Virus genome (UHGV): UHGV-0038492 | Origin: a virus | DNA: 64,000 nt | Reading direction: 5' to 3' (one strand) | Part shown: piece by piece, positions 17,675 through 55,059 of the stretch | Layout of the letters: every line of letters begins with the position of its first letter | Position numbering within the stretch: position 1 is the stretch's first letter | The notes under the pieces: model-generated | What the model was told of the DNA's origin: nothing | What the model saw: only the letters and a program-made list of their open reading frames with translations | The model's database searches: none | Program-made: the position numbers and the translations under genes

Positions 17675-17715
17675 CTCAGATATATATTACCTTAGTGAGA
17701 TTACACAGTAATCTC
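17671..17715 (+). promoter_or_regulatory. promoter-like motif TTTTCTCAGATATATATTACCTTAG followed by hairpin (copy 1)
   Basis: Near-identical 20-nt AT-rich element recurs at 39209 and 43638; hairpin GAGATTA-CACAG-TAATCTC follows; sits just after a terminator and ~55 nt before the HTH gene. Confidence 0.55.
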
Positions 17716-17750
17716 TTTACGACTTGTTCTACAGATTAGGATTAAATATC

Positions 17751-28850: not shown

Positions 28851-31800
28851 ATGAGAAAACATTTTCAGCGTCACGCGATTAGCTACGCGTTATCGTTAGC
28901 TTACGGACACCAATCCTTCGTTACCCGGAATACGGGAACGACTCACGACGCGCACAACGAACACTATATTCAAAACGAAGAAGGTGTTCTGTCGAATAAC
29001 CGTCATTTCATTGCTGACACTATGGCGGAATACCAACCGAACGGGGATGCGACGACCGAGGGTCAGTCGTTACACGTTATTGGTTACTGCCACATGTATA
29101 TCGCGACGAAAGACGAAAGATGGTTAGATGCGGCGAAACGTGCCTGGGATGCGTACAACACGTACTTCTACGTCGGACAACCTATTCCGACCACACCCCA
29201 GCGTCGTATTTGTAACTGGTTGGTAAACGGGAAAGAACCGGTATTAGCACATTATCCAATACATCCTACAGAACCTACCCAAGGTGGGTATAAAAGCGTT
29301 CCTGTAAGGTTTACAAACGGACAGTGTAAAATACCGCATGGTGCACCGTTCTGGGGAGAGTATTTGGATACCTTTACGTTTGCGCATCGTGGTCACCCTG
29401 CCTGGGAAGCCATTAACGCAGACGTACAGATTATCAAGGAAGACAAAGAAGGGTCAATTAATTGGGAAGATGTTTTAACTCACGTTATTACCAATCCTGA
29501 TAAACCCTACGAGGCCAAAGCGTGGGTTGATTGGCCTACGTTATTAAACAACGCTACAGGGTACACCCCGCTTTGGGGTGGGAGCGCAACAAAAGCCCCT
29601 AAACACGACGTTGACTGGATAATTGCCTGGACAGGTAACAAAATCCAGGACAGTGAGATTATTGAAACAGGATTAGCAGATGCTGATAAAGGTACCGTAC
29701 AGTTAAAAGACACGCAGTTAAACGGTGTCTATTTGATTAACTACGCGGTAAAACTGCCTGTCGAACACGGTGGTTACGAGTTTAAACGTAACGAACCGTG
29801 GCACAACCGTCCAGTTCACACGCCGTTCTTAGGATCGAAAAACCAATACGGTAACGCCGCTGATGCTGAACTGTGGTTTATTGACGCCTGTTATTTGCTG
29901 TGGCGAATCACGGGTGAAGAGAAATACAAACAAGCATTAGACTGTACTTTCTACACAGCACACGAGTACACGTATATTGATGCGGTAGATAAATTCTTCC
30001 GTCGTTCTACCGCTGCGGAAACACCGTTTACGGACGGCATTTCGTACGACTTCAATTACCCGGACACCGTAAGTGCTACATACGGCCGTGATGAGAATGG
30101 GGATATTACCATCCATGTGCCTGAAGCGGCACAACACTTTATGGAGCAGAAAGCGGTTCGATTCAGGATTAACAAAGACTCCAAACTACGTGTCACGTAC
30201 GGCGGGGTTTGTAAGAACGGCGATCCTGTCTACTGTAAAGCAATGGTAAACATTAACCCTGTGAAAGCTGATACCGAGGAAGTAAACTGGTACGGTTTAA
30301 CTTTACCTCGGTCTACGGTAAATACCGTTAAGCAGTACGATGTTGACTTAGGCCAACTTGCCCGTATTAGCACCCCAGAAGGGGAAGATTACCTGATAGC
30401 TGATGACCGTGCGTGTTCGGACTATGGTGGTTGTACGTGGGAAGAACGTTTTGAGGACAGCATTTACGACGGTCGCGCGGGTACCGTTATAGAAGCTGAA
30501 TTTCCTGATGACGGTGCCGGGTTTATTATCGGGTTCTGGTTAACCGCTGAAGAGAAGGTAAAACCGGTTTCTATTGTCTACCGTGCGGACGCAGATTTTA
30601 ACCTGCGTTTAGCTGACAGCGATAAGTGGCGTTGGTGGTGGATGTTACCCAACACAAACAACGAATGGCGTCAGGTAACGTTAAATCCGGATGATGCCAC
30701 ACTTTCCAGTTATCAGCCGGACCACACAGACGACGACCCTAAACCGGCAGCGCCGAATTTCGATAAGGTGGATCAGGTCACGATTCTCCCTGACTCTACG
30801 GTTGACCATGCGCACTTTGCTTACTATTGTGTTAACGATGTTCCACCGCTCTTTAATAAAGACGACGGTTATATTCTCACCTTCCGTATTGGGTTACGCG
30901 GCGGTGGAGAGTTTGATGCGAAGGTCGGCGACTGTACGATCAAAGATTACCGTTTGGATTCGTTAGCGTATTGTCCGGGTACGATACCGTTCTCGAACAA
31001 CTATTCAGAAGGTTCAGAACAGTTAGGTGCTTGGCACGGGATGCCTTATCCGGGTTATCAGTATCCGTTTATGTACACTATCCACAAAGACGACCGGTAT
31101 AAGCTGTGGTTAGATAACCAGATTCAATTCATGTACGATTCGCAGTTGGCTTACCAACGGCAGCTCGGTGAATTAGGGCCTGGTTGTGCAGCTTATATTT
31201 GGAACCGTTGGGACAACTACACCTACGGAGAAGCGGATACCTGGACAACGTTCCATTGGAGCGACGACCATCCGTGGCCAGGGTATCAACCTCGTGCGTT
31301 TCATGCTGCGTGTCGTTGCTGGTACGAACTGAAACTAAGAGGTAAAGAGGTTCCTGAAGCGTTAACAAGCTATATTGAAAACTGGGTGAATTGGCTAGGT
31401 GGGTTTGTGGATCGGTTTAACGGACACACCCCTAACGAGTTTCCTACAGCACCGAATAAACCCGTTTGGGTGGAAGATGACTTCAACGCACATATGTGTG
31501 CGTTGTGGTTAGCAGGCTGTTGTTGGGCATTACTCGCTGGTGCAACGAATCCGAACTACGATAAGGTAGTTAATGCGGCAATTAAGGAGTTAGGTGAAGG
31601 GTTTACGATTACCTCAATTCCGAATAAGCCGATTAACGGGGCGTGGTCTCCAGCCGCTCGAGAGTCTTCCGATAACGGTATGGCTTTTGGGTTCTACAGT
31701 GGGGAAGCGTTCCGTGCGTTAGGTCTCTACGTTACTTACAAAACTTACGGAGCCAACGCTAATATTTATCGTGACTTAGCGATTACTGACCACAGTCAAG

Positions 31801-31856
31801 CGGTTTTAGACGTTACGTTAACGATAGAAGACGATGCATTAAAACCAGAGCAATAA
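28851..31856 (+). CDS. large tail-associated protein, possible glycan hydrolase/depolymerase
   Basis: 1001-aa ORF between two fibre genes; Trp/Tyr/Asp-rich composition typical of carbohydrate-active enzymes; no motif-level proof. Confidence 0.7.
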   Translation: MRKHFQRHAISYALSLAYGHQSFVTRNTGTTHDAHNEHYIQNEEGVLSNNRHFIADTMAEYQPNGDATTEGQSLHVIGYCHMYIATKDERWLDAAKRAWDAYNTYFYVGQPIPTTPQRRICNWLVNGKEPVLAHYPIHPTEPTQGGYKSVPVRFTNGQCKIPHGAPFWGEYLDTFTFAHRGHPAWEAINADVQIIKEDKEGSINWEDVLTHVITNPDKPYEAKAWVDWPTLLNNATGYTPLWGGSATKAPKHDVDWIIAWTGNKIQDSEIIETGLADADKGTVQLKDTQLNGVYLINYAVKLPVEHGGYEFKRNEPWHNRPVHTPFLGSKNQYGNAADAELWFIDACYLLWRITGEEKYKQALDCTFYTAHEYTYIDAVDKFFRRSTAAETPFTDGISYDFNYPDTVSATYGRDENGDITIHVPEAAQHFMEQKAVRFRINKDSKLRVTYGGVCKNGDPVYCKAMVNINPVKADTEEVNWYGLTLPRSTVNTVKQYDVDLGQLARISTPEGEDYLIADDRACSDYGGCTWEERFEDSIYDGRAGTVIEAEFPDDGAGFIIGFWLTAEEKVKPVSIVYRADADFNLRLADSDKWRWWWMLPNTNNEWRQVTLNPDDATLSSYQPDHTDDDPKPAAPNFDKVDQVTILPDSTVDHAHFAYYCVNDVPPLFNKDDGYILTFRIGLRGGGEFDAKVGDCTIKDYRLDSLAYCPGTIPFSNNYSEGSEQLGAWHGMPYPGYQYPFMYTIHKDDRYKLWLDNQIQFMYDSQLAYQRQLGELGPGCAAYIWNRWDNYTYGEADTWTTFHWSDDHPWPGYQPRAFHAACRCWYELKLRGKEVPEALTSYIENWVNWLGGFVDRFNGHTPNEFPTAPNKPVWVEDDFNAHMCALWLAGCCWALLAGATNPNYDKVVNAAIKELGEGFTITSIPNKPINGAWSPAARESSDNGMAFGFYSGEAFRALGLYVTYKTYGANANIYRDLAITDHSQAVLDVTLTIEDDALKPEQ

Positions 31857-39210: not shown

Positions 39211-39258
39211 TTCTCAGATATATATTACCTAGAGGAGAGCGAAATTTACATTCGCTCT
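39209..39258 (+). promoter_or_regulatory. promoter-like motif TTTTCTCAGATATATATTACCTAG followed by hairpin (copy 2)
   Basis: Identical core to copy 1; hairpin AGAGCGAA...TTCGCTCT; sits after a terminator and ~50 nt before ORF 39286. Confidence 0.55.
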
Positions 39259-40588: not shown

Positions 40589-41431
40589 ATGTTTCAGTTC
40601 GAACTAACCGAAGAAGAAAAGGTTATCAACAAGTTTAAAATTTCCCCTATCCCTACTGAAGAACAAATTAAGGAAATCGCTGAGCTACAAAACACGTACA
40701 CGTTTTACTATAAAGTTAAATCAGAAGCGTTTAACATTTTCTGGGTAGAAGGCGAGGTCGATTTCCCTAACAAGCTCATTAGTGCGGTTATGGATATTTT
40801 AGTACGGCCTGTTGAGACGCCTAAAGATCCAGAAATTCCGGATCAAATGACTTGTAGGCTAAAAGACAAGCCAACTGCGAAAGACGTCGCTTACTTCACA
40901 GACGAGATTCTACTTACCCCAAAACAAGCAGGCAAAGTTGAACCAATAATAGACCTTTTTTTCAGTGACGAATTCACTTATGTGGCTGAAGACAACAAGC
41001 TAAAAGTGAGCTATGAGAGTGCTTGTTGTCACTCTCTTTTAAAAGATCTATTGGAAGACATAGAGGATGAAAGAATTCTGCTATTTACCGTTGAAAATAT
41101 TACCGAACTCGATGCTGATGTATTTATCCACGACGTGGATGATGAAATTGGACGTTTTGTAATGGCAATTTGTCAACAAAAATATCTTGAAGGTAACTTG
41201 CATCTCTTGGTCAAAAACGAACCACGGGTTCTTAAAGTTTTGAAGTCCCATGTACGGAAAATTAAGAGAAATAATGAATTATATAAACGTGTTTTCGAGA
41301 AATACGAAAAGGAAGTCAGACAACGTTTTTCACGCCATTGTTCCGGCTGGTTCGAAAATCACGGTGTGGAACTCGCCCAGCTGTTTGATCAGTTTTATAA
41401 TGAGATGAGGAAGATTCAAGATCTTAAATAA
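40589..41431 (+). CDS. hypothetical protein
   Basis: AAGGAG RBS; 280 aa. Confidence 0.65.
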   Translation: MFQFELTEEEKVINKFKISPIPTEEQIKEIAELQNTYTFYYKVKSEAFNIFWVEGEVDFPNKLISAVMDILVRPVETPKDPEIPDQMTCRLKDKPTAKDVAYFTDEILLTPKQAGKVEPIIDLFFSDEFTYVAEDNKLKVSYESACCHSLLKDLLEDIEDERILLFTVENITELDADVFIHDVDDEIGRFVMAICQQKYLEGNLHLLVKNEPRVLKVLKSHVRKIKRNNELYKRVFEKYEKEVRQRFSRHCSGWFENHGVELAQLFDQFYNEMRKIQDLK

Positions 41432-43359: not shown

Positions 43360-43630
43360 AACAGTTGTATTTCGTAGCAACGGTGATGTGGTTTTGTATC
43401 GTGGTAAGAAACGTATTCGTACGTTAGAATACCGAGAAGCAAAACGTTTTGTTGAAGAGTGTGCATGGTTAATGCATTACGAAGGGAACTATCGAGCTAT
43501 CTTAGAAGCACCGCGTTTAGAACGTGCGGTTGCACAGATGGCAATAGGTAATCCTAAGAACTGTTACCTGGCACGTAAGCCAAAATACCTACAGCGGCTT
43601 TCGTTAGGCAGCTTTATTGCTGGATTTTAA
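43349..43630 (+). CDS. hypothetical protein
   Basis: 93 aa; overlaps upstream gene end. Confidence 0.55.
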   Translation: MKRETVVFRSNGDVVLYRGKKRIRTLEYREAKRFVEECAWLMHYEGNYRAILEAPRLERAVAQMAIGNPKNCYLARKPKYLQRLSLGSFIAGF

Positions 43631-43637
43631 TAAAAAT

Positions 43638-43682
43638 AATTTCAGATATATATTACCTAGGTGAGAGTTCAGCTACTCTCAC
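43638..43682 (+). promoter_or_regulatory. promoter-like motif ATTTCAGATATATATTACCTAG followed by hairpin (copy 3)
   Basis: Identical 18-nt core; hairpin GTGAGAG...CTCTCAC; ~50 nt before ORF 43712. Confidence 0.55.
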
Positions 43683-43711
43683 TTAACTAAACCATTTTAG
43701 GAGCATATACC

Positions 43712-44206
43712 ATGAACTTCACTAGACTTGATTACACTAACGAATTAGTTGACAAAGAAAAATACAAATTCACCGTTGATTTGGGTTACGGATTACTGGA
43801 CGTAGAAAAAGATGTTCTGCACAAAGAATTCCGTGAGCAGTTCGGTGCTTTGTTCTGCGCAGGTTTCCGCAGAAACACTATTGATATCGGCTATAGCGCA
43901 ACAGCGTATACCGACGAAGAAATGTTTAAGCTGGTAACACAGATTGTCGGAACGCGTGGAGCCAAACGACTCAACTATTCCAATGAGCTTGTTTCGAAAG
44001 AACATTACAAGTTCACCGTTAGACTACCTGTTCACCTCACAGAAGAAGATAAGAACATCCTCTATAAAGCTCTTCAAACCGAATTCGGTAAAACGCTCAA
44101 AGTAGGGTTCCGTAGTCGTAGTATCGACATCGGGATTAGTGTAGACGTATGCAGTGACGATGACCTTTACGAACTAGTTTCGGAAGTTATCGGAAAACAT
44201 CTTTAA
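43712..44206 (+). CDS. hypothetical protein built from two tandem ~78-aa repeats
   Basis: Two halves align (YTNELVDKEKYKFTVDLGYGLL...FRRNTIDIGYS versus YSNELVSKEHYKFTVRLPVHL...FRSRSIDIGIS); preceded by promoter-like motif. Confidence 0.65.
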   Translation: MNFTRLDYTNELVDKEKYKFTVDLGYGLLDVEKDVLHKEFREQFGALFCAGFRRNTIDIGYSATAYTDEEMFKLVTQIVGTRGAKRLNYSNELVSKEHYKFTVRLPVHLTEEDKNILYKALQTEFGKTLKVGFRSRSIDIGISVDVCSDDDLYELVSEVIGKHL

Positions 44207-44250: not shown

Positions 44251-45042
44251 ATGGCTACTTTAACTATTGCTAATACTCTTACTCCTCGTAAAATGAAACG
44301 TCTTACGACTTTTATCTCTCGCTGCACACCTAGCGTCAAATTGGAAACGACCTCTGACAAAATCACGTTTTGGACTTATAGTGACGTAGAACTTGAAACT
44401 GTGAAAGGGTTTGTTAATGGGCTAGTTGAAAATACCGCATCATCGCTCGTTATTAGCTTCACTAGCGAAAATAGCGAGATGAACGAAGCAACAATTTCGG
44501 ATGCAATCTATTACGCGACTGGCAATAATTTTGATACCGCCGACAGACTTAATCTTTCTAATAACCTTTGTAAAATCGACGACAAGACTTACATCCTATA
44601 TTTTAATAGTCCGTTCCCACAAATCGGAGGTTTTAAACATTATCTTTCAATGAAACCTATCTTGGGTATAGAAGTTTTCTCTACGGATCTTGAAGACAAT
44701 GTACAGCTAAACCGTATTCGTTATCGCGGTAAACGTCCAACCGAAACAGATTCTGAATACGGTGCTTGTGCTGAATATATTCTGGTTCATAAAGATCGCT
44801 TCGCTTACTACAACCAAGACGATATTGAACGTCTTGTAGAAGCCGTCAATTTATACACTCGTGATTTTGCATTCCGATTGGTTTATAACACTTATCCGAA
44901 TGGTGTAACGGCTTTCTATATCCCTCCCTACCTTTTCGACAAGGTTTATTGTATTCTGTCTAAAGAACTGGAAAAAATTAAACCGGTTTTCGTGGGCGAA
45001 GACGCTATGGCTTATATCAGGAGTGGTGCTAATGTCCTCTAA
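44251..45042 (+). CDS. hypothetical protein
   Basis: 263-aa ORF. Confidence 0.65.
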   Translation: MATLTIANTLTPRKMKRLTTFISRCTPSVKLETTSDKITFWTYSDVELETVKGFVNGLVENTASSLVISFTSENSEMNEATISDAIYYATGNNFDTADRLNLSNNLCKIDDKTYILYFNSPFPQIGGFKHYLSMKPILGIEVFSTDLEDNVQLNRIRYRGKRPTETDSEYGACAEYILVHKDRFAYYNQDDIERLVEAVNLYTRDFAFRLVYNTYPNGVTAFYIPPYLFDKVYCILSKELEKIKPVFVGEDAMAYIRSGANVL

Positions 45043-45463
45043 ACTTAAAGATGAATTGCGTGATTACATTCGTAAATACCCAGCCAGTATTCCGGTACTG
45101 GCTTCACTCTCTTTATCGGGTATGGACCTTAATACCTTAACGGTAGAAAAATTCCACGAAGTGGTAAAATCGTCGTATCAAATTGTTACCGATATGTCAG
45201 TGCGGAAACGTGCTGACTACCCAGACGGTGATTTCGGTACAGAGATGTTCACAGACTACGCAGTTGCGTATCTGATGGGACGTCACTTTATCGATAAGCT
45301 CAATACAGCTGTAGAAGGAGAAACCGTTACGGAAATTGTCAATGCTTGGCAACAACGTATTGTGAGTGACGCTTACTGTCGTCAAGCCTTAAAGAAAATG
45401 TCGGCGGTAGCATTAACCAACGACCAACGTGCTTTAGAGTTCCTTAAGCACAATTACGAATAA
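45032..45463 (+). CDS. hypothetical protein, paralog A
   Basis: GGAG RBS; paralogous to ORF 46727 (shared N-terminal L-K-D-x-(L/I)-R-(D/N)-Y-I-R-K/N motif). Confidence 0.6.
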   Translation: MSSKLKDELRDYIRKYPASIPVLASLSLSGMDLNTLTVEKFHEVVKSSYQIVTDMSVRKRADYPDGDFGTEMFTDYAVAYLMGRHFIDKLNTAVEGETVTEIVNAWQQRIVSDAYCRQALKKMSAVALTNDQRALEFLKHNYE

Positions 45464-45484: not shown

Positions 45485-46657
45485 ATGTTTAATATTGAGA
45501 TTACACCGCTCGTTAAAACTGAAATCCGTCCGGTTCCTGAAGCACAGTTACTCGATCAACTTTATCGTATATTCCTGGATAAAGGTGTGCATTTCCGTGT
45601 AGAACAGGTCAATGACGAAAGCATCGTGTTCTACTGGACTCACAGCAACGATTATCTTTGCGATACTATCGCGAAAGAAATTGGTGAGTTGCTCAACCCA
45701 GCAGCCACGAACGCCAAGGTAGAAACGACCGAGACTGAACAACCGAAAGTCGAAGAACAGCAGTGGCCTGAAACCAGCGCCGACAACCCGCTCGTCTATC
45801 GGTATGGTGCCGAAACGAATGAGAAAATTAAAGAAACATTAGAGGCTCTCTATCCTGATTATTTAACCATCAGTCAACAATGCGACGTGTTAGTTATCTG
45901 GATGAATGATTTCGAACCCAAGCTCATTAAAGCTATTCGCATCACCGTTGCACTGATCGTCAAAGACGCCGTTCGCCTTATTTCGTTTGAAGGTATCGGT
46001 CGACGTGACGCGGATGATTTCATGCGTGATGTCGTTCACGAACACAAGGAGAAAATTCTTCGGTCTAATTATGTTGGTGACACTCTAATTGTGCTTGTTG
46101 ATAATGATCCCGTTATTATTAATCAGCTGAACATCCGTATGCGTAAGTTAACAAAGAAAATTTTTCTTAAAGGGGAGCAATCGCTTGAAGAGTCCAAAGT
46201 GTCTAAAGTCTTTACTTACACTGGTCCAGATGCCAAAGCGATTAACGATACTTTGGCAGCTTTCTATTCTAGCAAAGTAGAGACTAAACTCGAGGGCGAA
46301 GAACTCACCATTAAATGGAAATGGTGGGACATTGCTCTTGAAGAAGAAATTCATAGTCTTATTAAAGAGATTGTTGACAATCGTCTACGTCTTCTAACAA
46401 TCACTACTATCGGTGGAGAAGATGCCGATGCGTTTATAAGCGGGGTTCTTCGCGCGTATCCTGAGAAAGTCCGTCAATGGACTTACAATGACGATACACT
46501 TATCATCCTGCTCAACTATGAACCTGGCCTTATTGGGAAATTGAAGGATCGTCTACGCGATCTGTGGTACAAACGATTTCTTAAGGATGGGTCGAAAGAG
46601 CTCATTAAACGATTGTTTTCTGATTGCAACTGTCCTATATGTCAGAAGCATCGCTAA
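45485..46657 (+). CDS. hypothetical protein
   Basis: 390-aa ORF; C-terminal CNCPICQKH. Confidence 0.65.
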   Translation: MFNIEITPLVKTEIRPVPEAQLLDQLYRIFLDKGVHFRVEQVNDESIVFYWTHSNDYLCDTIAKEIGELLNPAATNAKVETTETEQPKVEEQQWPETSADNPLVYRYGAETNEKIKETLEALYPDYLTISQQCDVLVIWMNDFEPKLIKAIRITVALIVKDAVRLISFEGIGRRDADDFMRDVVHEHKEKILRSNYVGDTLIVLVDNDPVIINQLNIRMRKLTKKIFLKGEQSLEESKVSKVFTYTGPDAKAINDTLAAFYSSKVETKLEGEELTIKWKWWDIALEEEIHSLIKEIVDNRLRLLTITTIGGEDADAFISGVLRAYPEKVRQWTYNDDTLIILLNYEPGLIGKLKDRLRDLWYKRFLKDGSKELIKRLFSDCNCPICQKHR

Positions 46658-46674
46658 TTAACTAAATTCGTACA

Positions 46675-46710
46675 AGGGGTGGTTTACCACCCCTCTATTA
46701 TTGTATTTAC
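46675..46710 (+). terminator. intrinsic terminator (weak T tract)
   Basis: AGGGGTGG-TTTA-CCACCCCT. Confidence 0.5.
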
Positions 46711-46726: not shown

Positions 46727-47158
46727 ATGTTTTTCGTATTAAAAGATGATATTCGTAACTACATTCGTAACAATCCGATTGCTCTAGGCGTTTTAGCAGG
46801 TTTCTGTCGTCCAAATACTGACTTCGATTTAGTTAAGTTAGAAGAATATCAAGAAATTGTGAATACTACCTACCTGCACATCTGTAGCTGGGGTAAACGT
46901 CCTCGTGAAGAGTACCCTGTGGGTGAGTTAGGTGACACCATGCACCGTGACCAGAATCTGATGCACGAATTCGTTGAATACACACTGGAAAATCTTAACT
47001 ATCCGCTCCTGGTCGACACTGTACCAGAAATGGTTGACGAATGGTTAAAACGTGTTTATAGCGATCCTACCGCCAACAAGTTACTGAGCCAGATGTCACA
47101 AACTTCTCGTGACATCGACACTCGTACGCTGATGTACTTAGCACATAATGTTCGCTAA
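46727..47158 (+). CDS. hypothetical protein, paralog B
   Basis: AAAGGAG RBS; paralog of ORF 45032; terminator downstream. Confidence 0.6.
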   Translation: MFFVLKDDIRNYIRNNPIALGVLAGFCRPNTDFDLVKLEEYQEIVNTTYLHICSWGKRPREEYPVGELGDTMHRDQNLMHEFVEYTLENLNYPLLVDTVPEMVDEWLKRVYSDPTANKLLSQMSQTSRDIDTRTLMYLAHNVR

Positions 47159-47325: not shown

Positions 47326-48174
47326 ATGTCTCTTACGTCAAAACAGAAACTGCTAAAACTCATCAACACTGAAAACAATATTATTCCACCGTTGACTTTC
47401 AGTGATGTTGAAATCGGGGAACCTACCGGTACTGGGGTTGATACCCAGGTGGTTCTGACCTCTAAACTTAAAGGCGATGAGTCTACTACTTTAACAGTGA
47501 CTTACCACCGTCGTAACTTACCTGACTACCTAACCGGTGAGTTGGTATTCGGTAACGACAGTGTGGTAACCGCATCAGATTTGCTTAATGCGATTAACGC
47601 AAAATACAACCTAAATATTTTACCCTCGGATATCGTTGACGCAAAAGTTGAAGGCGAAACCCATCAGCTTACCGCTAACGAGAAATCTTACGAGTGGTGC
47701 GGTGTAGTAACGCTTACGCTGCGCGATCCTATTGACCTGACTGAACTGTTACCGGTTACTCAATTAGAGAATCTGGTAGAGTATCCGTCCACGAAGAAAG
47801 GTAACGCGGCGGTTTATTCTCACCCGATTGATTTCACCGCAGAAAAAGATTACCTTGACCCGATTACTATCAACGACGCTGTAGACTTGGTAGAATTAGC
47901 TACTAAACTGGATAGCGTCGTTGACGAGAAATGGGTAAGCGTACCTAAGAACGCGGCTAACAACCTGTACGGAGCGAAGATTATTTACGATGGTCCAACC
48001 GCAGGTTACGAAGGCGCAAATACGAAGTTCACTCGTGTGTTGGTGCTAACACTCAGCCCGCTGTGTTCTAACCTGACCGGTAACCTGTTAATTCACTTTA
48101 ACGGGACCGATCGTCCGAAGTCGAAGATTGAATTAGCACAGACTAATCCGGTCTTACCGGGATTCTTAGATTAA
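47326..48174 (+). CDS. hypothetical protein, fibre-associated small-protein family (extended)
   Basis: 282 aa; contains SDLLNAINAKYNLNILPSDI matching the family motif. Confidence 0.65.
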   Translation: MSLTSKQKLLKLINTENNIIPPLTFSDVEIGEPTGTGVDTQVVLTSKLKGDESTTLTVTYHRRNLPDYLTGELVFGNDSVVTASDLLNAINAKYNLNILPSDIVDAKVEGETHQLTANEKSYEWCGVVTLTLRDPIDLTELLPVTQLENLVEYPSTKKGNAAVYSHPIDFTAEKDYLDPITINDAVDLVELATKLDSVVDEKWVSVPKNAANNLYGAKIIYDGPTAGYEGANTKFTRVLVLTLSPLCSNLTGNLLIHFNGTDRPKSKIELAQTNPVLPGFLD

Positions 48175-48187
48175 GAGGATTACAGTA

Positions 48188-48667
48188 ATGGCCAATCAAG
48201 AAACTATCTTCGACCTTATTAAAAAGGCTAACCCGGACGCTGAGTTCGACACCACCAAAGTCACACTGGGTGAACCGGTTGTGACCACCGGTACTTACAA
48301 TACCGAAATTACGGTTGCGTCGATTAAGAATCTCGGTTATGTTAATAAGCAAACGTTCCAGTATAACCGCATTGACGCAGGTTTGTATTTCCTGAACGTA
48401 TTACCGAAATTGTTGGTAGAATCTGCAACGACTACCGCTGACTTACTGCCCGTCATTAACGAGCAGTACAGCCTAACCCTTACAGAAGACGACGTGTGGG
48501 TAGAACAGGTTGGTGAGTTACCGTTAGACGGTAGCGCAATCGAACACGGTATTTTCTTCCGTCCTGAGTGTCTGACCTGGGTTGGTGGTTTTACAGTGCG
48601 TGTTGCGCGTAAACCGGCTGACGCCACACCGCCAAAGACGGCGTCTCGCGCTAAAAAGAAAAAATAA
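48188..48667 (+). CDS. hypothetical protein, same family
   Basis: 159 aa; ADLLPVINEQYSLTLTEDDV motif; Lys-rich C-terminus; terminator downstream. Confidence 0.6.
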   Translation: MANQETIFDLIKKANPDAEFDTTKVTLGEPVVTTGTYNTEITVASIKNLGYVNKQTFQYNRIDAGLYFLNVLPKLLVESATTTADLLPVINEQYSLTLTEDDVWVEQVGELPLDGSAIEHGIFFRPECLTWVGGFTVRVARKPADATPPKTASRAKKKK

Positions 48668-53226: not shown

Positions 53227-53774
53227 TCATCGTCTCCTTTAATCAATCCTAATTCGATTAACAGTTCAAAATCGATATGACGGAATCTTGTATCAAAATC
53301 CGATTCCCAATCGATGCGGATACCCTGGCACTCTTCTGATGTTAGCTCGGGAAAAATTACGGTATTAAATTTCTCACGCTCATCGTAAAACCCATCAATC
53401 GGTGAGTTCGGGTTACGCGTTGCGAAAATAGTAATACCAGGGAAAGATAATGCTAACACAGTGATAGATTCTGCGCTGGGCTCACTTAAAGAGCGGCGTA
53501 GAAACGCAATTTTGTGGCGTGGGAAGTCCAATACGCGTTCTTCAAACCCTGGATTACGTTTTTCGATTTCCGCTACCGACAGGTCAGTAAGTTCGGTGCA
53601 ATACATTGGGATGATTACAGTCACGCCGTGGCGAATCAGTAAACGTTTTACGTCATCGGTAAAATCTTCGCCGTTAATCATCACGTAACAACCGAACAGC
53701 TTACTGTTTTCCAGAAACTTATCCAGAAGTCGAATTCTACGCTTCGTAATATTGTTGATCAGAATTGGTTTCAT
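53202..53774 (-). CDS. hypothetical protein co-operonic with radical-SAM enzymes
   Basis: 190-aa ORF overlapping both neighbours. Confidence 0.6.
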   Translation of the reverse strand: MKPILINNITKRRIRLLDKFLENSKLFGCYVMINGEDFTDDVKRLLIRHGVTVIIPMYCTELTDLSVAEIEKRNPGFEERVLDFPRHKIAFLRRSLSEPSAESITVLALSFPGITIFATRNPNSPIDGFYDEREKFNTVIFPELTSEECQGIRIDWESDFDTRFRHIDFELLIELGLIKGDDECLLLVKA

Positions 53775-55059
53775 CTTTGGCTTCTCTTAATAATTTTTCC
53801 TTTTGGGCGCGTTCACGAACACAGCGTGGGCAATAACACATACTCGTGTCGTGGAACGCTTTTGCTGACGTCGTACCCATCTTCTGTTTCCAGTATTCCG
53901 CCACCATCAGTTTCGCTGTCGTCCACCCGCACTGACGTCGCTCAGCGTGATACGCTTTACGGTCTTCCAGTGTCCCTTCACCGTTTTCGTAAGAAGCCGC
54001 AGCGCAGCTACCACAAGCGTGTTTCATCGGACAACCTAAGCACGTCTCTGGATAGTTGGTATATTGTGTTTGAATCTCTTCTAACAATTTACCGTTGTCC
54101 AGGCTGACGAATTCCCGACCTACCAACTCAAATACCGCAGAACGTGATGTTACGGTTGACATAAAGCGATTGCAACCGAAGATCTTACGGTCAAAACCTA
54201 AACACGTCATGTGTGTTAATGTCCCACAGAACGGACGTAAACGTTCTGGGTTCAACCGCACCGTGTCATTATAAAGTAATTGATCACGCCAGTTCGGTTC
54301 CCAAATCGTATCGAAATCCAACCCTTCTGGGATGATGTGCGATAAGATATTACGTGGGTTGGTGTGTAATCCTTTCTCGACCCAATAATCAATCACATCC
54401 ATCATCTGCAATGCAATTGAAGTAGCCATCCCACGTGGCATAATGTCTTCGAAGGTTACGTTGCCGGAGATAGTTCCGCCACCAGTAATATCAATTAATG
54501 ACTTCATTCCGGCAGCATAGTACGGTAACGTTTCTAACGTAAAGGTCGCCTTTACGCCAAGCTCTGCAATGCCAACCTCTTTTAAGTAGTTATAGCCTCG
54601 TACTGCGGCTTCGTAAGAACCCTGGCGCGTCGTTGTAAAGATACGATAACGGTCATGGGACTCAGGTAAGCCGTCAATTGAAACCCCAACCGAAAGTTTG
54701 TCTTTCCAACGCTCTACGATCTCACGGTTCAACGGGCGATCTAACAACGTCCCGTTTGTGGAAATACTAAACATAAACGGCCGATTATGTTCTTTACACA
54801 ACTGCTCGGCGGTTTCAAATGCAGCCAGCAGCAACTTAGGCTGCATGAACGGTTCACCACCGATAATGTCAATAATAACTTCAACATTCGGTTCGTTTTT
54901 ATCGCGTTCAAAACAGGCGTGCAAGAAATCAACAATATCTGCCGCTTTGTTGTTACGCGGGTACTTACGTTCGTAACAATATTCGCAGTCCAGGTTACAC
55001 GAAAGGTTCGTTACAATCTGATACGTTAGCTGCTTAGGGAATTCATTTACCTGACTCAT
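53737..55059 (-). CDS. radical SAM enzyme with C-terminal SPASM-like Cys cluster (anSME/peptide-maturase-like)
   Basis: N-terminal CNLDCEYC (CxxxCxxC), GGEPFM SAM-binding motif, and C-terminal cysteines (CLGCPMKHACGSC...CYCPRC) typical of auxiliary Fe-S clusters. Confidence 0.75.
   Translation of the reverse strand: MSQVNEFPKQLTYQIVTNLSCNLDCEYCYERKYPRNNKAADIVDFLHACFERDKNEPNVEVIIDIIGGEPFMQPKLLLAAFETAEQLCKEHNRPFMFSISTNGTLLDRPLNREIVERWKDKLSVGVSIDGLPESHDRYRIFTTTRQGSYEAAVRGYNYLKEVGIAELGVKATFTLETLPYYAAGMKSLIDITGGGTISGNVTFEDIMPRGMATSIALQMMDVIDYWVEKGLHTNPRNILSHIIPEGLDFDTIWEPNWRDQLLYNDTVRLNPERLRPFCGTLTHMTCLGFDRKIFGCNRFMSTVTSRSAVFELVGREFVSLDNGKLLEEIQTQYTNYPETCLGCPMKHACGSCAAASYENGEGTLEDRKAYHAERRQCGWTTAKLMVAEYWKQKMGTTSAKAFHDTSMCYCPRCVRERAQKEKLLREAKDETNSDQQYYEA

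Follow-up and report, generated by a model that had tools for sequence, protein, structure and literature searches.

Does the gene at positions 43712–44206 of the window under study encode one domain twice, and would the two copies act as a dimer within a single chain? The window is a stretch of 64,000 nucleotides (nt) of the virus genome UHGV-0038492, in which a preliminary description had noted a gene for a 164-amino-acid (aa) protein made of two tandem repeats. The results of the present analysis indicate that this protein is almost certainly an internal tandem duplication of a domain of about 80 residues. The overall best reading, to which a probability of about 0.55 was assigned, is that of an early accessory protein that works as a dimer and is here fused into a single chain.

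Internal repeat of the 164-aa protein

The gene and its parts are listed below, with the evidence for each in brackets (pLDDT, predicted local distance difference test score; dN/dS, ratio of non-synonymous to synonymous substitution rates).

43712–44206, + strand: coding sequence of 164 aa with two tandem domains (list of open reading frames and sequence)
43724–43951, + strand: repeat 1, residues 5–80 (gapless alignment to repeat 2; 59% identity to a free-standing 88-aa protein)
43952–43966, + strand: linker TRGAK, residues 81–85 (pLDDT <50 at residues 83–85; AKR(L) matches the tail AKRAI of the single-domain protein)
43967–44194, + strand: repeat 2, residues 86–161, the copy with the stronger conservation and the more confident model (dN/dS and pLDDT)

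The open reading frame (ORF) was found exactly as first described, with an ATG start codon at 43712 and a TAA stop codon at 44204–44206. According to physicochemical computation, its product is a soluble protein of 18.9 kDa with an isoelectric point of 5.6, and contains neither a signal nor a membrane segment. BLASTP aligned residues 5–80 with residues 86–161 without gaps at an offset of 81 (33 of 76 positions identical, 53 of 76 positive; E-value, 3e-24), which bears out the reported lengthwise alignment of the two halves; the unit length of ~78 residues given earlier is near enough to the period of 81 and the aligned core of 76. The similarity kept its significance against shuffled controls as well. 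The local BLOSUM62 score of the two halves was 180, compared with 25.2 ± 4.8 (maximum, 50) when the second half was shuffled 5000 times (z = 32), and the duplication survives this test. Since the DNA of the two copies is 54% identical and their synonymous sites are saturated (proportion of synonymous differences, 0.84), the duplication appears to be old and detectable in the protein alone; the sole strong nucleotide patch between the copies is 24 nt long.

Purifying selection acts on both copies, more strictly on the C-terminal one: dN/dS amounts to 0.12–0.21 in repeat 1 and to 0.05–0.07 in repeat 2. Variable columns are found at 26 of 76 positions in repeat 2 and at 32 of 76 in repeat 1. The C-terminal copy, which has the longest branch, is yet the more constrained one now. 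When the window gene was compared with its counterpart at locus L008 (positions 73–567), dS was 0.26 in the N-terminal half and 0.80 in the C-terminal half, and this approximately three-fold difference suggests a recombination breakpoint inside the gene.

The chance that the gene is an artefact, be it a spurious ORF, a mis-assembled repeat or a pair of adjacent paralogues joined by a sequencing frameshift, is negligible. Nothing speaks for it beyond the general possibility and the fact that the gene carries no annotated function anywhere, whereas the same 164-aa frame is present in >25 independent assemblies, including the closed 222,441-bp sequence NZ_CP134650.1 (protein WP_311383436.1). Moreover, dN/dS is well under 1 in both halves, the 54% identity of the copies at the DNA level makes them too diverged for mis-assembly, and the linker is in frame at all loci. 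On these grounds, a spurious ORF or an assembly artefact was ruled out.

Single-domain relatives and the relation between the two forms

A word-indexed search of 5.8 billion proteins yielded 21 full-length clusters at 85–97% identity to the 164-aa protein, together with two fragments; 29 distinct full-length orthologues within the same range of identity are located in phage contigs of ~220–225 kb. Exhaustive searching of 1.84 billion representatives with phmmer returned nothing besides this family and an 88-aa protein (P0024), which matches residues 1–86 of the 164-aa protein at 59% identity. Hence, a single-domain homologue of the kind that the preliminary description had proposed for comparison does exist, and it occupies the same genomic slot in sister phages. 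Searches of IMG/VR and metagenome contigs added further copies of the 164-aa and 88-aa forms only, and no new relatives were obtained with P0024 or with a domain profile built from three sequences as the query.

The other searches gave negative results too. No relative was found in GTDB genome contigs, and tblastn revealed no match in 50,697 GenBank phages. The hidden Markov model of the domain detected no extra copies among all ORFs of the window and in the syntenic regions of phages SPN3US and Asesino, and hhalign comparison with the genes in the corresponding slots of these two phages gave probabilities of <1%. There was no credible match to Pfam, PHROGs, NCBIfam or PADLOC profiles (chance-level hits: HxsD, E-value 0.053; HpnM, E-value 0.035), and the profile search of PDB sequences returned only chance matches to orotidine monophosphate decarboxylase (E-value ≥0.07). 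The domain family is, as far as these searches reach, evidently confined to this SPN3US-related phage lineage.

The HxsD hit mentioned above covers residues 88–117 in repeat 2 (43973–44062) and lies below the NCBIfam threshold (13.9 bits, with a cut-off of 50). HxsD, which is itself small, belongs to the radical-SAM His-Xaa-Ser system, and a radical-SAM gene is located in the window on the − strand (53737–55059), 10 kb away. The resemblance is most likely due to chance.

The single-domain form is known from five contigs or genomes of related phages of ~222 kb, two of which are 222.7–222.8 kb in size, and it is represented by four distinct sequences (P0024 and three near-identical variants). 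The order of genes at the P0024 locus (283-147-280-171-93-129/132-102-102-93-[88]-258-142-373-143-282-158-196, in aa) mirrors that of the window, and the order through ...-102-102-93-[88 or 164] is identical between the loci. The single-domain protein shares 59% identity with the N-terminal half and 43–46% with the C-terminal half of the 164-aa protein, the two halves being 41–43% identical to each other. A three-way alignment of these domains contains 27 invariant positions, which are clustered in Y..E.V.KE.YKFTV.L, FG and GFR...IDIG. At the C-terminus of the single-domain protein, ...TAKRAI (followed by the stop codon) is the counterpart of the linker ...GAKR-L-NY... in the fused protein. 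The last codons of the fused gene (AAA CAT CTT TAA) resemble those of the single gene (AAA CGT GCG ATT TAA), and the 3' flanks of the two are homologous. These matches indicate that the two forms evidently differ through an in-frame gain or loss of 76 codons, which is nearly the whole gene length. An additional GC-rich hairpin (GGGTAAG..CTTACCC), followed by a T-rich sequence, was observed in the spacer 3' of the single-domain allele at locus L002 (7831–7852) and also at L014; it is absent from all two-domain loci.

As regards the direction of this change, fusion and collapse stand at roughly even odds, no outgroup having been found. In an unrooted three-lineage comparison, with identities of 41% between the N- and C-terminal copies, 59% between the N-terminal copy and the single domain and 43% between the C-terminal copy and the single domain, the branch lengths were 0.22 for the N-terminal copy, 0.19 for the single domain and 0.37 for the C-terminal copy. 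Such distances would fit a duplication that preceded the split between the N-terminal copy and the single domain and was followed by collapse, and they would fit equally a late duplication after which the new copy changed rapidly. There is a little under an even chance that the two-domain form is ancestral and that the 88-aa form arose from it by deletion between the short repeats AAACGTCTT (linker) and AAACATCTT (tail), in which case the window gene would not be a recent fusion. Under equal rates, the branch lengths put the split of the C-terminal copy first, and, judged by their flanking genes, the single-form phages nest within the two-domain ones. The two-domain form is also much commoner (29 distinct sequences vs four), and the 9-nt near-repeat common to linker and tail could mediate the deletion. 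However, the comparison of three taxa has no root, a post-duplication burst in the new copy yields the same distances, and searches of representative proteins, GTDB, IMG/VR and metagenomes, as well as those with the domain profile, provided no outgroup. The flank phylogeny, in turn, is a weak guide to the history of the gene, because the locus is a mosaic, with unequal dS in the two halves and reassorting alleles.

Predicted structure and the dimer reading

The AlphaFold2 model of the 164-aa protein, based on an alignment of 23 sequences, nearly all of which are >85% identical, has a pLDDT of 68.9 and a predicted template modelling score (pTM) of 0.49. The first 13 residues are modelled with low confidence as disordered. 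In repeat 1, the model places a strand at residues 20–23, a helix at 30–47, strands at 48–52 and 56–61, and a helix at 68–83; in repeat 2, strands at 88–95 and 98–104, a helix at 111–125, strands at 130–133 and 137–143, and a helix at 149–163. Mean pLDDT values of 10-residue blocks range from 66 to 88 within residues 91–164. The model of the 88-aa protein, obtained with an alignment of three sequences, has a pLDDT of 75.7 and a pTM of 0.61, and its elements follow the same order as those in the C-terminal half of the 164-aa protein. From these models we infer that each repeat is a small two-layer alpha/beta domain, roughly ββαββα. Of the two parts of the preliminary interpretation, the internal duplication is supported; the pseudo-dimeric fold is a putative one, as the confidence of the model in the overall arrangement is low.

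Foldseek comparison of the model with BFVD and PDB produced nothing with an E-value <1e-3, only generic neighbours. The predicted fold class appears to be common and uninformative on function; several of the neighbours are dimerisation modules, which is suggestive only. One likeness is to the fold of DCoH/pterin-4a-carbinolamine dehydratase (PCD; 2ebb_A; acRAF, 4low_B), to which the sequence identity is 13%; this architecture is very common, and the likeness gives no indication of homology. The candidate that the protein is a PCD enzyme was rejected, as neither a match to Pfam PF01329 nor a catalytic motif of the His-His-Pro type was present in the sequence. Another likeness is to ferredoxin-like heavy-metal-associated (HMA) domains (4u9r_A, 4y2i_A, 1mwz_A), from which the phage domain differs in strand order and connectivity, its extra strand being N-terminal rather than C-terminal. 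A metal-binding role of the HMA type was also rejected: there is no CxxC (GMxCxxC loop) and no match to Pfam PF00403, and the two cysteines of the protein, C49 and C147, are isolated. The fused Rpb3-Rpb11 subunit of African swine fever virus (ASFV) RNA polymerase (8q3b_C) resembles the model at a root-mean-square deviation (rmsd) of 7.6 Å and without a sequence relation; unlike it, the phage gene is non-core and lineage-restricted, and the pseudo-two-fold symmetry is only proposed for the phage protein. The TATA-box binding protein is an example of two dimer partners joined in one chain by duplication or fusion.

A covalent pseudo-dimer would be the most economical reading of the 164-aa protein, with a chance somewhat better than even. 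The two domains may instead be independent beads on a ~5-residue linker, each with its own binding site, providing avidity or contacts to two partners, without any pseudo-dimer. This is unlikely by comparison, even if a pTM of just 0.49, despite moderate confidence in each domain, agrees with it, as do the pLDDT values below 50 in the linker. The halves, at 41–43% identity and with unequal rates of evolution, would also fit divergent roles, and no PDB structure was found to match both domains together. On the other hand, so short a linker favours packing, the low pTM may merely reflect the shallow alignment, and many of the nearest folds are dimerisation modules. Much further down the scale, and highly improbable, is a role as a dimerisation module of the alpha/Rpb3-Rpb11 type, serving as the assembly platform of the phage multisubunit RNA polymerases, for which no alpha subunit has been recognised. 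Proteins of the Rpb3/Rpb11 type occupy ranks 2, 3, 7 and 44 among the BFVD matches, the Sulfolobus RNA polymerase subunit 2y0s_C is among the PDB matches, and the gene sits behind an early-type promoter motif. These structural matches are not significant, though (E-value 3e-3 or worse; rmsd, 7.6–17 Å; TM-score, 0.17–0.37), and no Pfam match to RNA polymerase dimerisation domains was found. Furthermore, the gene is not core, since neither SPN3US nor Asesino nor any other GenBank phage has it, and its slot is hypervariable.

The reading as an early, dimeric accessory protein has to be held against several points. No sequence relative of known function was found in Pfam, PHROGs, NCBIfam, PADLOC, PDB, the GenBank phages or the domain-profile searches. 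In the 164-aa model, the domain arrangement is of low confidence, as its pTM indicates, and the first strand is unformed in the N-terminal half, the order of elements being otherwise the same from the second strand onward. Given the structural matches, the fold class would be approximate only, and the presumed promoter is assigned by motif similarity to other phages.

According to the dimer reading, the 88-aa form would act as a homodimer, and the 164-aa form would be the same dimer made covalent. Fusion would let the two halves specialise, as the long branch and the present constraint of the C-terminal copy might reflect. As the first gene after the putative phiKZ-type early promoter, it would be read by the virion RNA polymerase that is injected at the start of infection, and its product may act, during take-over or persistence, by binding a macromolecule of the host or the phage rather than as an enzyme. 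No catalytic or metal-binding motif was found in the 164-aa sequence. Confidence in any specific target of the protein is low. That the domain represents a novel family of factors for early host take-over or for persistence, specific to "persistent" Seoul-like jumbo phages, is doubtful, albeit likelier than the role as a polymerase platform. If it does, the co-circulating dimeric and fused-dimer alleles would amount to a natural experiment on the passage from dimer to single chain.

As a phenomenon, that passage by internal duplication is not new, being a textbook case in protein evolution; the gene has an existing database entry as a hypothetical protein, and its family has neither a name nor a known relative. 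The locus is of mild value in that the single and fused states occur at one slot in phages whose neighbouring proteins are 84–97% identical, and the coexisting alleles would permit a clean allele-swap test of the benefit of fusion. The gene appears to be early, fast-evolving and lineage-restricted, and comes from a group of jumbo phages that are persistent in isolates of Salmonella and Enterobacter and whose accessory genes are almost wholly uncharacterised.

Upstream signals, presumed operon and genomic neighbourhood

The features that surround the gene are given below.

43640–43660, + strand: early-promoter-like motif TTTCAGATATATATTACCTAG, with the core TATATTAC at 43649–43656 (conservation and match to a literature motif)
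43658–43685, + strand: 11-bp stem-loop directly after the motif, at the predicted 5' end of the transcript (RNA fold, −16.9 kcal/mol; z = −3.55)
43699–43703, + strand: ribosome-binding site AGGAG, 8 nt before the ATG (read from the sequence; conserved in all aligned loci)
44251–45042, + strand: 263-aa gene that follows in the presumed operon, occupying a replaceable slot (three lengths in sister phages)
46675–46694, + strand: first terminator-like hairpin downstream (consensus scan)

A conserved, AT-rich early-promoter motif is located directly upstream of the 164-aa gene. The motif TTTCAGATATATATTACCTAG is invariant in the window and at loci L002, L005 and L008, despite the diverging coding sequence downstream. 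Three copies of the 21-nt motif are present in the window (43640–43660, 17683 and 39221), while 0.42 would be expected by chance. When a 5.2-kb query was compared by megablast, the sole part of it that matched SPN3US-like and Erwinia jumbo phages was the segment at ~43623–43685 in the 81-bp spacer. According to the literature, the predicted promoter core of phage phiKZ is TATATTAC, and the longer consensus of phages 201phi2-1, OBP and N1M2 reads TTT.A...TATATTA....GTG (PMC7058600, Table 2). Such motifs, located before the early operons of jumbo phages that encode RNA polymerases, have turned out to be early promoters used by the virion RNA polymerase (PMC7598289). The motif of the window contains the exact core and resembles the longer consensus, whereas the window phage belongs to a different genus and the conserved stem-loop after the motif is outside the published consensus. 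Judging by this similarity, the 164-aa gene is probably expressed early.

The core of the stem (GTGAGAG/CTCTCAC) is invariant across the loci, and the loop varies. Hairpins are also predicted after the motif copies at 17683 and 39221, although their folds are no better than those of shuffled sequences (z = −1.8 and −1.1). Taken together, the sites with a motif (TCAGATATATATTACCT.AG) and a stem-loop are found at 17675–17716, 39213–39258 and 43640–43685, all on the + strand, and differ in the sequence of their stem-loops, which start only a few bases after the motif. The copy at 39221 comes after a terminator-like hairpin detected by the scan, and that at 17683 after a GC-rich hairpin recognised by eye. 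Such hairpins might make early mRNAs more stable or take part in promoter recognition.

The slot 3' of the 164-aa gene is filled by an ORF of 263 aa, 254–258 aa or 157 aa. Identity between the 263-aa and 258-aa forms is 25%, and the 157-aa form differs by its length and N-terminal sequence. The three forms reassort with the two-domain allele, and the 258-aa form is present at each of the five single-domain loci. A unit of four genes (164, 263, 146 and 390 aa) ending at the hairpin at 46675–46694 is possible; the consensus scan for terminators detected eight sites, compared with 7.2 in shuffled sequences, and therefore no excess. Because the proteins encoded by the neighbouring genes of the window and of locus L002 are 84–97% identical, those of the 164-aa gene 58% and those of the next gene 25%, the locus looks like a fast-turnover accessory locus, a pattern that would fit a host-facing accessory gene.

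The window phage is evidently an SPN3US-related ("Seoul-like") jumbo phage. Large ORFs of the window match PHROGs for virion, tail and tail-fibre proteins and for a radical-SAM protein, a tail-protein gene (28851–31856) shares ~70–72% DNA identity with Erwinia phage Asesino and the SPN3US group, and the 171-aa neighbour is 45–57% identical to proteins of phiEaH2, Asesino and SPN3US. Megablast of the 5.2-kb query revealed no close GenBank phage. Near-identical genomes of 220–225 kb are found in Salmonella enterica assemblies and in metagenomes. The closed circular sequence NZ_CP134650.1 (locus L009), in which the gene is annotated as a hypothetical protein, is recorded as "plasmid unnamed1" of Enterobacter ludwigii; in other words, a lytic-type jumbo phage has been deposited as a "non-mobilizable plasmid". 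Contigs of ~224 kb of the same phage occur in many assemblies of Salmonella isolates, and one protein cluster has 419 member sequences. "Seoul-like" persistent virulent jumbo phages are known from bacterial assemblies, and the window phage fits the "persistent virulent phages" described there (bioRxiv 10.1101/2024.12.31.630880).

Further duplications were observed nearby. The 390-aa protein (45485–46657, + strand) has a tandem repeat of its own of ~140 residues (~90–229 vs ~231–367; score, 155 vs 31 ± 5 for shuffles; z = 23). The 280-aa protein (40589–41431, + strand) is a paralogue of it (score, 108), and neither of the two has a Pfam or PHROG match. The 390-aa gene is flanked by the genes for the 146-aa (45023–45463, + strand) and 143-aa (46727–47158, + strand) proteins, which are paralogues (score, 209) and both belong to phrog_8484. 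With this pair and a pair of DUF7941 genes at 47326–48174 and 48188–48667, the region appears to be a cluster of local duplications.
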